A DNA stretch of 62,262 nucleotides, the filler included, from Collodictyon triciliatum (lineage: Eukaryota): assembly GCA_043381765.1 (NCBI GenBank). It is 5 parts of 5 records of this genome, joined end to end, with 100 filler letters (N's around TTAATTAATTAA, not from the genome) between each part and the next. Parts side by side here need not be neighbours in the genome. Positions count along the whole stretch, not along the records: positions 30,523 to 43,918 come from JBHJMP010000659.1; 4 more parts are not named here. One strand, 5' to 3'. Positions 12,674 through 60,998 of this stretch are shown one piece after another. The position numbers were made by a program, and so were the translations under genes. The notes under the pieces are model-generated. The model saw only the letters and a list, made by a program, of their open reading frames with translations, did not search any database and was not told the origin of the DNA. Each line of letters begins with the position of its first letter. The stretch's first letter is position 1.

Positions 12674-12773
12674 NNNNNNNNNNNNNNNNNNNNNNNNNNN
12701 NNNNNNNNNNNNNNNNNTTAATTAATTAANNNNNNNNNNNNNNNNNNNNNNNNNNNNNNNNNNNNNNNNNNNN
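12674..12773. other. Artificial contig spacer (N-TTAATTAATTAA-N)
   Basis: 100-nt N run with a central six-frame stop linker; genes on both sides are truncated. Confidence 0.95.
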
Positions 12774-30422: not shown

Positions 30423-30522
30423 NNNNNNNNNNNNNNNNNNNNNNNNNNNNNNNNNNNNNNNNNNNNTTAATTAATTAANNNNNNNNNNNNNNNNNNNNNN
30501 NNNNNNNNNNNNNNNNNNNNNN
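30423..30522. other. Artificial contig spacer
   Basis: Same N-TTAATTAATTAA-N structure. Confidence 0.95.
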
Positions 30523-33758: not shown

Positions 33759-37702
<3,944 letters not shown>

Positions 37703-39118
37703 TTGTTGATCGACTCTTTCTTTCTCTTGAAGAGCTGAGCGGCAGCAGGACTCAACAGGTCTTGCTTTTTATTTCCCGGCTTCTGTGGTGGTAGATGAGT
37801 TATGCGATCGACAACGCCCGGTTAGGAGAAGCAGGGGACGCTCAAAGATTATCTAAAATAAAACTCGCTTGACTTTTAACTCTTTCTCTTTTGAAAAACA
37901 ACGCAAAAGAAAACACGTGTTGAGCCTCAGGGCTCCGGTCTTAACCCTCTCGCTGCGCATCTTGATCAAAGTCCCCCTCAATCAAGACAGGCTCTGGGAA
38001 AGATTATGAAATCGAATCGGCTGACAAATAAAATTCCAGAAATGGGCAAATGATGAGTGCCGTCATTTCAGCGAGATGGGGTTCGAACATCTTTTGGCCA
38101 ATCACAACACGGAGACTTCACCAACAACACCATCAAATCGATACTCCTGAAAAGCTGAAAAAGCAACAACACCAACCTCTACAGAACATTATTCAAATAA
38201 AATCAATTTCAATGAACAATACACACTAATCCGGATACTTGCACCCCGCATCCAAAGCCAACAGCCACAAATAGGCAATGCACATAATTCGTCTTATTTA
38301 GAATAGTTTTATGTATATTAGTAGAAAGTGAACAAATATGTGTTTTGTTTCGTGGCCATGAGAGAAAGCACATCACTATATGTGTGCGAGTGTGGGAGAA
38401 ACGTTATGAAGTGTGTATTCGCAGGCGGCCACAAGATGCAAACAAACAAACAAACAAAAGTCAAAAGCAGATCAGATTTCTTCACAACCTTTCAGAGGAA
38501 GCAAAGGAAGCTCGTGCAAAGGAACTGCGAAGAGAAGGGACAGCAAGATAATCAAGTCCACACGCTTCGCCCTCAAGCAAGAGATATATGAGTGTGATAT
38601 AAAACCCCAAAGGATACTCAGCGTTATTGTTCTTGTGATCTATGTTAAGCCGTCTGGGGCAACAAAATCCTTCCTGGGGTCTTTATCCTGCTTGGACTAA
38701 TGTGTCCAGCAAATCAAAGCAATGTGTTTGTTTTCCTGGCGCAAACACTTCCAGAAAACAAACTCTTCTTTCGAGTCGTCCTCTATTTTATGTTGAAGGA
38801 GAGACAAAACTGGAGCAAAGGCAGAATAAAGACAGGAGAAAAAAAGAAAGAAGGGAACATAAGATAAAAGAAAAGAAAAACTATAGAGCAAAATACAAAA
38901 ATACCTCAAAACAGGTCCACCTTGAGTCCAACCGATTCGTCGCCGACTCACTCCACTTGCATCGCAGCAGCTTTTTGACCGCCCGATCGCTTTCTACCAA
39001 TACACTCGGTCAAACTAGACCAGGAAGCAGATCACACTCCAACCAACCAAACCAGTAAATCAGGTCCTCCGTTTTTGAATCCGCATTCTCATATGCAACT
39101 AGTCTCCTCTCCTTTATA

Positions 39119-39217
39119 CTCAACTCAACTCAACTCAACTCAACTCAACTCAACTCAACTCAACTCAACTCAACTCAACTCTACTAGCCTCAACTCAACT
39201 CAACCCGACCCGACCCG
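39119..39217 (+). repeat. (CAACT)n / (CGACC)n pentamer repeat just upstream of the AdoMetDC ATG
   Basis: Direct reading. Confidence 0.9.
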
Positions 39218-39218
39218 A

Positions 39219-40004
39219 ATGAGCGCCACCTCCTCCGAACCTGACGCTGCACAATGGTCTACAACGATTTCTGAGTCCGATCTGAACGCCGGGGATCTGA
39301 GCGACTCCGCGTGTCCTCCTTGCATGGGCGGCACTTCAAGCGGCTTCGAAGGCGTGGAAAAGAAAGTCGAGATTGATTTCAAGGGTGTTGGACTGGGCGA
39401 CACGCCGACTCTTCGTTCCATCCCGCGCGACGAGTGGGACGCCATTCTATGGGACGCCAAATGCTGCATCCTCAACGTTTCCACCAACGACATCTTTGAC
39501 GCCTATCTCCTCTCCGAAAGTTCGCTCTTTGTCTACGATGCGAAGCTCATGATTAAGACCTGCGGAACAACGACATTGCTGCTGATGATTCCTCGGCTTC
39601 TTGAGGTCGTTCGTGACGTGTGTGGACCACACGTCAGTGTCGAGTTTCTGCAGTTTTCCCGCTCTGCTTTCCGCTTCCCACAGGAACAGCGTTTTCCTCA
39701 TACCAGTTTTGAGCAGGAGGTATCATATTCCACCCTTTCTTTCGTATTACAAGCGTAGTCAGGGGATTGGTTCAGTTTTACTTTTGTCATTGGGCATCTC
39801 TCTTTTTTTTGATTCATATTTATTTTTGTGTTATTTTTTCTTTCCTAACTTGTACATTCTAGGTCAAGTTCCTGCAGCAATACTTTGATGGCGACGCATA
39901 CACACTTGGTCGTCTGAACGGTCCGACCTGGCACTTGTATATCGCAGATTACACGGACTCGTCTCGCAAGCACGAAGAATTCAATGACCAGAGCATCGAG
40001 GTAA

Positions 40005-40042
<38 letters not shown>

Positions 40043-43000
40043 AAGCAATCATCCGTAATCTGAGTGGAACCTCTTGTCATGAACAGTTAACACATATCCA
40101 ATCGAAGCTTATTCTTTTTTTTTCTCATGTCAACAGACTTCACTCAAAGAGAATGGCCACCATTCGCTAATGTTGTGTTCTTTTTTCCCCTTTCCTATTT
40201 AATCATCACCATCCTAAGATTATCATGCACGACTTGGACGCGGCATCCATGGCCCATTTTTTTAAGGGAGAGAACTTTACCACGCCTGAGGAGGTCACCA
40301 GGGCATCTGGTATCAAAGGGCTAATGATGGAGGGAACAATCATCGATGAATATTGTTTTGATCCATGCGGATACTCCCTGAATGCTTTGAACGGCAACGT
40401 GCACTACACCATCCACATCACACCAGAGGCACACTGTAGCTATGTCAGCTTCGAGACAAATCTCTCCTCAAAGAATTACATGTCGTTAATCTCTCAAGTG
40501 GTTTCAGTCTTCAAACCTGGTCGTTTTGCCGTAACATTGTTTGTCGACGACCATGCAATAGCCGCGAGCTCTGACCTTTTCAAAGGATCCGTATGTAGCT
40601 CAACACAGTTTTTCATAAATAATGAAGGAAATAACTCACCCACTGCTAACCCATTATTGAATAATATAATTCATTTTTTTCACAATTTAAAGAAAAACAT
40701 AACCACTCTTTTACAGACATTTTTGGAAGGATATTCGCTGAACGACAAAGCTGCTCATAAATTCTCTGGTTCCTACAAAGCCATTTACTGCAACTATACC
40801 ATGACAGATAAAGAAAGGTACTACTCTCGAATCAATGGACAGCGCGATGAAGCGAATGTTTACCCGAAACGCGCAATGATGTGGGTCTCATAAAATTTAC
40901 GTCATGTATTGTCTAAATCATTATCCTTTTCTTACATTCAGCATCGGGCTTGATTCCATTCACGAGCTTACAATCTCGGAGCAGCACCAAACTGGAACAC
41001 ACTACTCTGGATGGGAACAATGTCCTGATATTTTCAAGGAGCTTAATGTTGAAAAAATTGAAGGAACGCCAGCCATTACTGACTTGATTCGAAGAAAAAT
41101 TGACGAACAGGAAATGGAGGAGGCATTCTTTTTGAGTAAGTGAAACATCCAGAGATATTATCACCCAATTTTTTTCCAATCCTTTTAACTATCCTACTGA
41201 GAAACAGAACTACTCTACTCATAGGTTTCTTTTTCATTTTGATTTTTTTAAATAATACATCGTGTAATCTTTCATTTCAATCATTAGTGGACCTCGGGAC
41301 TGTCGCTCAGAAGTTAAATGAATGGACGAAGAAACTTCCAAATGTCCAGCCGGTTTATGGTTTGTTGCTTAGCCGTGAACCATGATAGTTCTCATAGCAC
41401 ACAATTTTTCCCATAGATTGTTCTCTCCATCATACGCAGGACAGTTTCATTGAATTTCTTTTATACCCTGCTCGTCATTTCTCAGCCCTCAAGTGCAATA
41501 CGTCTCCTGGAATTCTGAAGATGCTAAACCGCTTTGGATGCAACTTCCAATGTTCTAGTCAGCCCGAGATTGATGCTGTAAGATAATAAAAAAAAATCAA
41601 TAATTCAAAGCACATTGAAGCTGACGCTAAAGTCATGGCATGATTCAATACATATTCTCCTCTAGGATTTACGAATAAATATTCAAAGCCCTCTGATTCC
41701 TTTCCATTTACGCAAACGAAGACGTTTCTCTTGCTCAGTTTTATTTCCCTCTAACTATGACATGATTCCCAAACAGGCGCTTTCTGAAGGAATTCCTGCA
41801 AGCAAAATCTTGTACTCAAATCCATGCAAGATGCCATCGCAAATCAAATACGCAAAGAAACACGGTATCGGGACGATGATGTTTGACAGCCAGGAGGAAT
41901 TGGAGAAAATCGCAGCAAACTACTCAACTGCCCAGCTCCTGATGCGGATCGCCCTTCCTGATGTACTACCTGCAGAAGGAATCACAGCTTCAAGCACAAC
42001 CGCGATAACAAATACCGCTTCAGGGAAATACGGAGTCGCCATTTCTGACTGCCATAATTTGCTTCGGGCTGCAAAGAAACTCCAACTGCAAGTTGTGGGT
42101 GTTAGGTATACAGCCGCTATATATTACAGAACCGTGCACAAAACTCCTCCCTCACTCAGCACACCACCAAAAGTGCCAATGTTCCCTTTAAATCGATTGC
42201 TTCAGAAGCTGACACAAGTGGCCATACATATGTAAATTTAGTTTCGATGTGGGCTTCAACTGGGACGGAGTTGACCCCGAGAGATATGCTGTTGGACTGG
42301 AACGAGCAAGGAGCATTTTTAATATTGCAGACTCACTAGGGATAAAAATGGACACAGTTGATATTGGTGGCGGATTTCCAGGTAAACACCGTTGCACAGC
42401 CACCAGTCACATACGTGTATCATTATGTTTGTACATACATTTGTTTTAAAATGAAATATTTAATATATTGGAAATATCTTGTAGTTGTGAATTGCATGTT
42501 TTAGGAGAATACGACCCTTGCAATAATAATAAAGTGCTCAATATCCCCTCTTAAACCAAACTCAAACACGTACACAAACACATGACCAGGCCTTGAAAAT
42601 GGGAAAGTCCAGTTCGACACCCTTGCCACCGCCATCAACCAGAAAGTGGAAGCACTCTTCCCAGAAAACATCCGCATCATTGCCGAAACTGCACGCTTCA
42701 TGACGTCCACATGTGCCACTCTCGCTGTCAACGTCTTTGCCCGCCGCGTGGTGAACAAAGGCTCCGGCCCCGTCATCGGTACAACCTCCATATTTAAATC
42801 AAGACCAATGACGAGAATAACCAACGTGTGCATCAGCCACGCCTTCGCTCAAAGAAAACCTACACATCCACCAAACCACAACCCAGACGCCGAAGCAGAC
42901 CTCCAGAACGCAACCCCGCGGTTTCTCTACTACGTCAACGACGGGGTCTACGGCTCGTTCAACTGCCTGCTCTTTGACAAGGCCAAGGTCACCGCAATCC

Positions 43001-43370
43001 CACTCGACCCGCAGGCCGCGCAGGAGGACCAATTGCGGTATCCTTGCACGGTCTTTGGCCCCACGTGCGACGGTACAACACCCTCCATCCAAACCTGCTT
43101 TCTCGCCAGCTGAATCCGCCACTGCCACAGATTTTCATCACACTCGACAAAAGCACTGCATATGTGCGCGATGCGGCATTCTCGCTCATCAAGCGCGCGT
43201 TTTTTCTCACAGGTCTCGACTGCATCTCTGAGCGCGCCCTGCTTCCGGAACTCAGTGTGGGCGACTGGCTCTACTTCCCCAACATGGGCTCATACACAAC
43301 CACGGCGGCCACAAACTTCAACGGATTCCCTGCCACACGCATCTTCTACACCTGCGCCTCCACACACTGA
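39219..43370 (+). CDS. S-adenosylmethionine decarboxylase fused to an ornithine-decarboxylase-like (fold III PLP) domain
   Basis: Exons 39219-39719, 39863-40000, 40219-40590, 40717-40880, 40942-41135, 41288-41359, 41486-41577, 41777-42105, 42242-42381, 42590-42778, 42887-43072, 43213-43370 join in one frame via GT-AG introns. AdoMetDC motifs: FEGVEK, YLLSESSLFV, IKTCGTT, FPHTSF, FDPCGYS, TIHITPE..SYVSFETN. ODC motifs: PVYALKCN, NPCK, DIGGGFPG, YYVNDGVYGSFNC, GPTCDGLD, NMGSYT, FNGF. Confidence 0.9.
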
Positions 43371-43705
43371 CACGCCCCAGTTAGCCCATACCATTTATAT
43401 CCAGTAAGAAATAAACGATCTAATGCCTTATATGGACGCCCGCACTTGCATCTTTGTCCCTGGTTCTGGCGCTTTGTGAGTTATCCGCAACGGCCTTGAA
43501 AGAAAACAGATAACGTGGTGATGATAACGTTCCGCAGCGCCTCCATTTTCACCTACTCTTCTTCCTTGAAGATACTCTTTGTTGCGTTATTCTTTTTTTC
43601 TCTTTCTTCTAGAGTATTCCTTGATTGTTTATACACACCTGATCTGGTCAACCGACACGATCGCCAGCTTATCTGCACGGTTGAACGACAGCGCCCAAAA
43701 CAACG

Positions 43706-43918
43706 ATGATTCAGTCGAGAGTCACTTCTGCTCTTTCGCAACTGCGCGTCCAATCGTCTTCTGCAGCCGTGGTTTTATCAGACTTTGCTGGGAATGCCGA
43801 ACGCAAACGAAGCCACGCCGAAGAACGAAAACCACCACTTGTTGTGTTTTCAGGGTCGTTCAACCCGCTGACGATCTCTCACAGGGAAATGTGTGTGGAA
43901 GCGTGTCGCTCGCTTTCG
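43706..43918 (+). CDS. NMNAT/cytidylyltransferase-superfamily nucleotidyltransferase, N-terminal fragment cut by contig end
   Basis: LVVFSGSFNPLTISH matches the GSFNPxTxxH motif of NMN adenylyltransferase-like proteins. Confidence 0.65.
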
Positions 43919-44018
43919 NNNNNNNNNNNNNNNNNNNNNNNNNNNNNNNNNNNNNNNNNNNNTTAATTAATTAANNNNNNNNNNNNNNNNNNNNNNNNNN
44001 NNNNNNNNNNNNNNNNNN
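43919..44018. other. Artificial contig spacer
   Basis: Same N-TTAATTAATTAA-N structure. Confidence 0.95.
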
Positions 44019-60898: not shown

Positions 60899-60998
60899 NN
60901 NNNNNNNNNNNNNNNNNNNNNNNNNNNNNNNNNNNNNNNNNNTTAATTAATTAANNNNNNNNNNNNNNNNNNNNNNNNNNNNNNNNNNNNNNNNNNNN
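60899..60998. other. Artificial contig spacer
   Basis: Same N-TTAATTAATTAA-N structure. Confidence 0.95.

Follow-up and report, generated by a model that had tools for sequence, protein, structure and literature searches.

The best-described protein that joins AdoMetDC and ornithine decarboxylase (ODC), the two decarboxylases of the polyamine pathway, is that of Plasmodium. The accessible parts of PMC3253432 describe a chain of ~170 kDa with an N-terminal AdoMetDC, a hinge and a C-terminal ODC, present as two chains per complex, in which the domains modulate each other without substrate channelling. In the accessible portions of PMC3940083 and PMC3253432 this arrangement is called unique to Plasmodium and used as a drug-target argument. 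We analysed a 62,262-nt stretch of the Collodictyon triciliatum assembly GCA_043381765.1, made of five parts joined by filler and referred to as the window, and found that the part from JBHJMP010000659.1 carries at 39219–43370 on the + strand a gene of the same kind. As in the P. falciparum enzyme, a single open reading frame (ORF) encodes AdoMetDC, a hinge region and an ODC fold, and the two reactions are not consecutive. The window product is a compact ~91 kDa (823 aa), with a linker of about 22 aa and no large inserts, and its ODC half lacks D88, H197 and S200, whereas both Plasmodium domains are experimentally active. A preliminary description of this DNA had already recognised that the host is not Plasmodium and that one gene and one mRNA carry AdoMetDC N-terminally and ODC C-terminally, and both statements hold.

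Exon borders were set after translating positions 38800–43800 of the + strand in three frames. The 12 exons first proposed are separated by GT..AG introns throughout and join with matching phases into an open frame of 2535 nt (844 aa), and these borders, phases and frame stand except at the donor of intron 4. Transcript evidence was taken from assembled contigs, not raw reads, of four runs in three studies (X1–X4; 10 runs were listed, 7 of which hold part of the stretch, with small shares in X5–X7). Ten introns were found as GT..AG joints in these contigs, while the eleventh (40001–40218) is implied by contig coordinates, a long poly-A run having masked the joint 40000/40219. One joint, 41577/41777, looks like 41578/41780 with ‘CA’ between, which is caused by a synonymous G>A at 41779 (X1–X3). 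The halves of the protein are spliced together at 40817/40942 in all four runs; the joint 40880/40942, which had been named as the one that reads should span, was in no contig of X1–X4. Exon 4 thus loses 21 codons with its phase unchanged, and the product has 823 aa instead of the 844 aa initially given. Record 1 of X1 (2251 nt) covers 39310–42777 and spans both halves, and polyadenylation is visible as a loose end of 23 A after 43430 in X2, with a piece of X1 stopping at 43429. No spacer or N run lies inside the gene, in line with the earlier account; the nearest are at 37409–37460 and 43919–43962. The gene is real and expressed, and it yields a single mRNA.

One could also suppose two adjacent genes or an assembly chimera, with AdoMetDC ending at TAA 40891–40893 and a separate ODC gene just downstream: this stop lies in frame 74 nt into intron 4, an ATG in the ODC frame follows shortly after it, and exons 4 and 5 have no Pfam match of their own. 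The contigs spliced at 40817/40942 contradict this, since four of four runs in three studies skip 40818–40941 exactly at its GT..AG borders and a single contig covers both halves. A Diphylleia transcript moreover encodes the same uninterrupted ORF and 188 other proteins share the architecture, and we regard the two-gene explanation as scarcely credible. Retention of intron 4 would, by computation, stop the frame at the same TAA and give a 395-aa stand-alone AdoMetDC; no such retention was observed in the assembled contigs of X1–X4. Some contigs of X2, X3 and X4 match only 42926–42965, the conserved YYVNDGVYGSFN region, and then run into unlike sequence; these are probably ODC genes of other metatranscriptome organisms and not variants of the fusion gene.

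The domain content was assessed by a Pfam scan of 10 of the 12 exon translations, all except exons 6 and 12. SAM_decarbox (PF01536; cut-off 22.2 bits) matched exons 1, 2 and 3 over profile positions 2–301 of 343, Orn_Arg_deC_N (PF02784; cut-off 23.4 bits) matched exons 7, 8 and 9, and Orn_DAP_Arg_deC (PF00278; cut-off 23 bits) matched exon 11, with no match in exons 4, 5 and 10. Seven of the ten scanned exons were therefore matched, all in the right order, with both ODC domains present and in the sequence expected (exons 7–9, then 11). The combined evidence of frame and domains is far beyond chance.

When exon 1 was searched against longer proteins, 791 matches were returned, and at least 10 of the best 120 carried both AdoMetDC and ODC Pfam domains. 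The best match was a transcript-derived ORF of Diphylleia rotans (P0001; EukProt EP00002), an uninterrupted 843-aa sequence of the same architecture that is uncharacterised and unnamed in its source. Identity between the two is 79.4% in AdoMetDC, 75.5% in ODC and 45% in the linker, which is 35 aa longer in Diphylleia, and on these values the window gene is identified as the ortholog of the Diphylleia fusion. Judged by this one gene, the host would be a diphyllatean close to Diphylleia. Both proteins have the same ODC oddities (Q88, D197 and F200), while P0001 lacks an insertion of ~11 aa in the exon-8 region and has G276 where the window has A.

We gathered the wider family by full-length searches with the Diphylleia and Cardiosporidium proteins and by name look-ups. 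Both domains were present in 189 of 480 sequences examined (188 database proteins and the window), with a median length of 830 aa and AdoMetDC first in all 189, which supports the early suggestion that the fusion is more widespread. It occurs in Archaeplastida, Alveolata, Rhizaria and CRuMs: in glaucophytes (Cyanophora, Gloeochaete), red algae (Rhodosorus, Rhodochaete, Pyropia, Porphyridium), chlorophytes (Chloropicon, Nannochloris, Bryopsis, Trebouxia, Cymbomonas), streptophyte algae (Chlorokybus, Closterium), liverworts (Marchantia, Riccia, Calypogeia), a lycophyte (Selaginella), ferns (Adiantum, Ceratopteris), a dinoflagellate (Gymnodinium smaydae), chromerids (Chromera, Vitrella), apicomplexans (Cardiosporidium and the gregarine Selenidium) and a vampyrellid (Leptophrys). 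A HMMER search against 1.84 billion representatives gave 10,679 matches at E ≤ 0.001, the best 150 of which included dozens of 50%-identity clusters of at least 680 aa matching both halves. Compact fusions of glaucophytes, green algae and seedless plants (Cyanophora P0133, Gloeochaete P0131, Marchantia P0452, Selaginella P0471, Adiantum P0141) have the same domain order, 756–860 aa and intact AdoMetDC residues, and the glaucophyte proteins are 43–46% identical to P0001 over 95% of its length (46% in Gloeochaete).

In seedless land plants (Marchantia, Riccia, Selaginella, Ceratopteris and Adiantum) and streptophyte algae, the fusion lies on large chromosomal contigs (P0452, P0430, P0471, P0451, P0139, P0141, P0423, P0268). 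The predictions for Chlorokybus (P0423) and Closterium (P0445) have an additional N-terminal PF08132, which we take to be the plant AdoMetDC leader-peptide family, and an upstream ORF may have been merged into these gene models.

An AlphaFold2 model of P0001 (36-row alignment; mean predicted local distance difference test score, pLDDT, 82.4) showed two confident domains at residues 42–369 and 427–843, with pLDDT below 50 at residues 1–41 and 370–426. The predicted template modelling score of 0.53 means that no fixed packing between the domains is predicted. Mapped by homology to the low-confidence stretch of this model, the linker of the window protein comprises residues 371–392, and it is predicted to be flexible and about 22 aa long, well short of the ~70 aa of the preliminary description. 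The junction of exons 4 and 5 falls at codon 371, at the start of the linker. Separately, chain A of PDB entry 9fos (also 9fsc and 9gyg), a 727-residue ‘ornithine decarboxylase’ and unusually long for an ODC, matches Diphylleia residues 419–772 with its positions 226–591.

Catalytic residues were tabulated for 46 fusions together with 7 stand-alone sequences, of ODC or antizyme inhibitor (AZIN), aligned with MAFFT, with columns indexed through P0001 against mouse ODC (7odc) and through the window exons against human AdoMetDC, including the proenzyme 1jl0. Residue numbers in the AdoMetDC half are those we take to be used for the human enzyme, the alignments to which were made here. All four motifs listed at the outset (LSESS, TCGTT, PCGYS and TIHITPE) are present in the window and intact in the human alignments. 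The self-cleavage site, E100/S101 within LSESS, aligns with that of the human proenzyme and is kept in 46 of 46 fused rows. Equivalents of F7, E8, E11, E67, S68, C82, F223, C226, S229, H243 and E247 are all found in the window; E67, S68, C82, F223, S229 and H243 are kept in every fused row, seven rows of dinoflagellate type have other residues at C226 and E247, and three rows truncated at the N-terminus lack F7, E8 and E11. On these residues, the AdoMetDC half is very probably active. The seven dinoflagellate-type fusions (P0146, P0147, P0148, P0149, P0151, P0158 and P0161, one of them named Gymnodinium smaydae) have I, V, Y or F at C226 and Q at E247 and a fully canonical ODC half, a pattern opposite to that of the red algae described below.

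Upstream of the gene, the same foreign 5′ sequence was attached at two AG sites in runs from different studies (X4 and X2). In record 12 of X4 this leader forms a loose end, after which the contig matches 38909–39000 with one other letter; this one-letter mismatch fits a leader 3′ end of AAAGAG lying over genomic AAACAG. In X2 a loose end ending in CTAATCAAAG precedes 38966, and here too the leader ends in AAAGAG. A search of the 62-kb window for an 18-mer of the leader, allowing up to 2 mismatches, found no copy, which rules out an upstream exon close by; exact copies occur in 61 metagenome contigs (L001–L061). In 59 of them the 18-mer is found no more than 13 nt from the 5′ end, as part of one shared leader (at least 36 nt; AACCGATCAAGTAGCTAACACTACCTAATCAAAGAG) that unrelated sequences follow; the first ATG comes a median of 9 nt after the leader and opens an ORF of at least 100 aa in 58 of these 59. 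Neither blastn nor tblastx matched any of the 61 contigs to the window, and the fusion is encoded in none of them; they are from other genes, and possibly from a relative (median GC 59%, compared to 50.5% for the fusion coding sequence). The fusion mRNA carries a spliced leader, added at two alternative acceptors. Among the papers listed by a literature search, none links spliced leaders to Diphyllatea or CRuMs; if the host assignment holds, they would gain a place as a further eukaryote lineage with spliced-leader trans-splicing.

Features of the AdoMetDC-ODC fusion gene, in window coordinates (UTR, untranslated region; X1–X4, runs whose assembled contigs provide the evidence)
Feature	Position	Strand	Evidence and remarks
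Trans-splice acceptor AG, site 1	38913..38914	+	Leader joined to 38915; X4 record 12
Trans-splice acceptor AG, site 2	38966..38967	+	Leader joined to 38968; X2
5′ UTR from upstream acceptor	38915..39218	+	ATG 39093-39095; (TCAAC)12 at 39120-39179; contig cover 38900-39060
Template-switch-oligo-like loose end	before 39002		X1; contig end within 5′ UTR
Exon 1, AdoMetDC beta chain and start of alpha chain	39219..39719	+	PF01536, 149.8 bits; N-terminal 40 aa of low confidence; cleavage E100/S101 (codons 39516-39521); KTCGTT cysteine
Exon 2, AdoMetDC	39863..40000	+	PF01536, 23.8 bits; joint 39719/39863 in 4 of 4 runs
Exon 3, AdoMetDC, FDPCGYS and TIHITPE	40219..40590	+	PF01536, 124.8 bits; human alpha-chain alignment
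Exon 4, end of AdoMetDC core	40717..40817	+	Joints 40590/40717 (X1, X2) and 40817/40942 (X1-X4)
Intron 4, joins the enzyme halves	40818..40941	+	124 nt, GT..AG; 4 of 4 runs
Exon 5, ~22-aa linker, then ODC N-terminal helix	40942..41135	+	Contigs and model; no Pfam match
Exon 6, start of ODC barrel	41288..41359	+	Joints 41135/41288 and 41359/41486
Exon 7, ODC	41486..41577	+	PF02784, 24.1 bits; K69 equivalent is residue 462; D88 to Q, residue 481
Exon 8, ODC	41777..42105	+	PF02784, 73.8 bits; E94, R154 and K169 equivalents; insertion of ~11-12 aa relative to solved ODCs and Diphylleia
Exon 9, ODC	42242..42381	+	PF02784, 25.3 bits; H197 to D (602); S200 to F (605); GGG phosphate loop kept
Exon 10, ODC	42590..42778	+	E274 and R277 kept; G276 to A in the window only
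Exon 11, ODC C-terminal sheet domain	42887..43072	+	PF00278, 38 bits; D332, C360 and D361 kept
Exon 12, ODC C-terminus	43213..43370	+	Y389, F397 and N398 kept; stop TGA 43368-43370
3′ UTR	43371..43430	+	AATAAA 43410-43415; poly(A) added after about 43430

The filler spacers of the window (12674–12773, 30423–30522, 43919–44018 and 60899–60998) each consist of two runs of 44 N placed 12 bases apart, and the one at 43919 begins ~550 nt downstream of the stop codon. Other N runs in the window are 52–594 bases long.

We consider it very likely that this locus is a nuclear, spliced-leader trans-spliced gene of 12 exons, from a freshwater protist near Diphylleia rotans (Diphyllatea, CRuMs), that produces one polypeptide of 823 aa (865 aa from the upstream ATG), consisting of AdoMetDC, a flexible linker of ~22 aa and an ODC fold. 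By analogy with known enzymes, the AdoMetDC half would cut itself at E100/S101 to form its pyruvoyl cofactor, the beta chain of ~100 aa would stay bound to the alpha chain, and the alpha chain would be covalently tethered to the ODC half. The ODC half would pair head to tail with a second copy, giving a particle of two fused chains, and through the tether the two decarboxylases would be coupled in amount and possibly also in activity. No substrate channelling is expected, because the two decarboxylations are not consecutive steps.

A number of observations weigh against parts of this account. Assembled contigs can neither exclude nor quantify minor isoforms, such as use of the 40880 donor or retention of intron 4, and X1 and X2 are only presumed from their records to be RNA, their contigs being spliced, with oligo and poly(A) ends, and behaving like cDNA. 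Window and RNA contigs differ at 22 single-base positions (39001–43028), several of them common to X1 and X2, which indicates that the contigs come from other strains or close relatives of the window source; an allele particular to the window, or an error, may explain the difference at 39895 (C>T), present in all four runs. Which ATG starts translation is ambiguous, in that an in-frame ATG, the sole ATG of the 5′ UTR, lies 42 codons upstream of 39219 with no stop between. The 42-residue extension from this ATG runs through the (TCAAC)12 microsatellite, and changes in repeat number that are not a multiple of three would turn it into an upstream ORF; in Diphylleia, the ORF begins at the position corresponding to 39219. 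Within the ODC half, 17 residues are kept out of the 20 that the accessible part of PMC5518511 names as most critical for ODC (G171, G387 and D364 being read from the window sequence against the P0001–7odc alignment), and the three replaced (D88Q, H197D and S200F) are all contacts of pyridoxal phosphate (PLP), assigned there to PLP stabilisation. G276 is A in the window alone, Diphylleia having G, and an Aedes ODC with H197N and D332R is called non-functional in the accessible part of PMC3543441. Lastly, membership of the malaria enzyme in the same family is presumed from its relatives Cardiosporidium, Selenidium, Chromera and Vitrella and not from a Plasmodium sequence.

The ODC-fold domain proposed earlier is borne out by the Pfam order and by alignment of P0001 with mouse ODC 7odc (E = 7.7e-97), but with three PLP contacts replaced it is not fully canonical. 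Residues kept in the window are K69, E94, R154, K169, D233, G235–237, E274, R277, D332, C360, D361, Y389, F397 and N398, with K462 of the 823-aa model corresponding to the Schiff-base lysine K69. The replacements D88Q, H197D and S200F are identical in Diphylleia and common to these two proteins only. Unlike the window, the compact fusions in the residue table, which leaves Marchantia and Selaginella outside, keep H197 and an acidic residue at 88 (D88E in Cyanophora); the rows of Adiantum and Chloropicon have the full canonical ODC set and those of glaucophytes differ at S200. Because these three PLP contacts are replaced, ODC activity is uncertain, and judged from the residues we give its retention a little less than an even chance, with the remainder divided between an altered PLP enzyme and a regulatory pseudo-enzyme.

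Selection and tree shape bear on the same question. The ODC half is as conserved between the window and Diphylleia as the AdoMetDC half, and in the ODC tree the two sit on a long shared stem (0.61) with short tips (0.14 and 0.21), a combination that points to purifying selection and not to decay. The ODC half may nevertheless have ceased to be an ornithine decarboxylase, serving instead as a structural or allosteric partner of AdoMetDC or as a PLP enzyme of another specificity. This is a real possibility, held tentatively, for which the confinement of the three PLP-contact changes to the window and Diphylleia and the long stem of this ODC clade both speak, as does the mutual modulation of the Plasmodium domains reported in the accessible parts of PMC3253432. 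K69 is also replaced in 18 of the 46 fused rows, those of red-algal and Leptophrys types, in which all AdoMetDC catalytic residues are kept, so that a non-catalytic ODC half is evidently worth keeping. Yet the window retains K69, E274, R277, D332, C360, D361, Y389, F397 and the GGG loop, which a pure scaffold would not need, and the organism has no known stand-alone ODC to stand in for it.

The K69-less proteins (P0002, P0007, P0011, P0015, P0019, P0020, P0031, P0039, P0063, P0121, P0170, P0176, P0205, P0214, P0223, P0229, P0232 and P0240) have in most cases lost the GGG loop and E274 too, which looks, from their sequences, like repeated conversion of the ODC half to a non-catalytic domain. 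Like the window protein, the fusions of Rhodosorus, Rhodochaete, Pyropia, Porphyridium and Leptophrys vorax have an intact AdoMetDC and a retained ODC-fold half; unlike it, they have lost the Schiff-base lysine and mostly the GGG loop and E274, all three of which the window keeps. They are a precedent for an ODC half kept after catalytic-residue change. Further parallels for the candidate regulatory domain are AZIN and ODC-related protein, in which the ODC fold has lost catalysis and regulates the pathway, and which are told from ODC by the critical-residue list (accessible part of PMC5518511). In trypanosomatids, according to the accessible part of PMC3663545, a dead paralog activates DHS. 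AZIN, ODC-related protein and the trypanosomatid dead paralogs are separate polypeptides, whereas the candidate domain of the window is covalently fused and has far fewer residues changed.

The origin of the fusion was assessed with one FastTree tree for each half (93 and 98 rows); in these, unnamed rows were represented by 25 fused and 35 unfused sequences taken at random and the others were left out. Separate phylogenies of the domains had been proposed at the start, and they recover the same large fused groups in both halves (alveolates, green lineage, red algae, glaucophytes, the Leptophrys group and the diphyllatean pair of window and Diphylleia), but neither tree fixes the deep placement of that pair. 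In the ODC tree, the unfused enzymes of animals, fungi and amoebozoans cluster separately. Labels changed between fused and solo 7 times, a count that is inflated because some ‘solo’ rows inside fused clades are fragments or degenerate-ODC fusions (P0002, P0039, P0125 and P0377, for example); genuine secondary splits are seen in Chlamydomonas and Sanguina, inside the green fused clade. Next after Diphylleia, the two halves of the window protein both match best to the same fused proteins of glaucophyte type (43–53% identity), by small margins in both AdoMetDC (fused 324–338 bits, unfused 303) and ODC (fused 346, unfused 331). We read these patterns as a single old fusion that was later split in some lineages and lost in others.

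The preliminary description had offered an independent compact fusion as one of two explanations, that is, a convergent joining of the host’s own AdoMetDC and ODC genes. The loose deep placement of the pair in both trees, the narrow score margins over unfused proteins and linkers that cannot be aligned across lineages would all fit such an event. It is not favoured, because both halves share the same nearest fused glaucophyte-type relatives, and the identical domain order in 189 of 189 fusions, the full-length identity with Gloeochaete and the grouping of the pair with the fused P0003 in the AdoMetDC tree (support 99) likewise argue against it; we consider convergence quite improbable.

Diphyllateans eat other eukaryotes, and the gene could have been acquired ready-fused from algal prey, glaucophyte-like or another archaeplastid, instead of descending vertically from an early eukaryote. 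Outside the diphyllateans, both halves have their nearest relatives among glaucophyte-type fusions, which would agree with such a transfer, as would the make-up of the sampled unfused ODCs, mostly opisthokont and amoebozoan, given that published abstracts put CRuMs at the base of Amorphea. In neither tree, however, is the pair nested inside glaucophytes, its identity to their fusions is only 43–53%, and 11 spliceosomal introns and a host spliced leader mean that any transfer was old. We find this origin unlikely.

A broader reading, which as a whole we think rather unlikely, would take the fusion not as a malaria oddity but as an old eukaryotic gene, fused before the CRuMs, plant, alveolate and rhizarian lineages parted (or spread early among them) and afterwards separated or lost in animals, fungi, amoebozoans and seed plants. 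The diphyllatean branch would then be one of several in which the ODC half has given up PLP contacts and now acts mainly as a regulatory partner built into the same chain as AdoMetDC, the covalent equivalent of the trypanosomatid dead-paralog activators.

Fused proteins of this family are already public under automatic database names, which are the only names of the compact glaucophyte, green-algal and seedless-plant members, and we found no paper on these in the open-access literature. Nor did we find in that literature a paper describing the fusion outside Plasmodium, and it is not described in the accessible parts of PMC12803844, PMC6356823, PMC11107197 and a 2026 bioRxiv preprint. The family is large and publicly visible, yet apparently undescribed.

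For the window alone the result is modest, the gene being the ortholog of an existing, uncharacterised Diphylleia transcript. It provides transcript-backed genomic proof of a compact AdoMetDC-ODC in a deep-branching, free-living protist, which bears on the claim that the arrangement is unique to Plasmodium, and, starting from the window, some 188 other fused proteins were found, in groups ranging from glaucophytes to ferns. Compact relatives free of inserts could be tractable models for communication between the domains, and those lineages whose ODC half is missing catalytic residues are a natural experiment on its other roles. As the genes are fused in CRuMs and many Diaphoretickes and unfused in the sampled Amorphea, the fusion could be a rare genomic character for the deep relationships of eukaryotes, if transfer is excluded.

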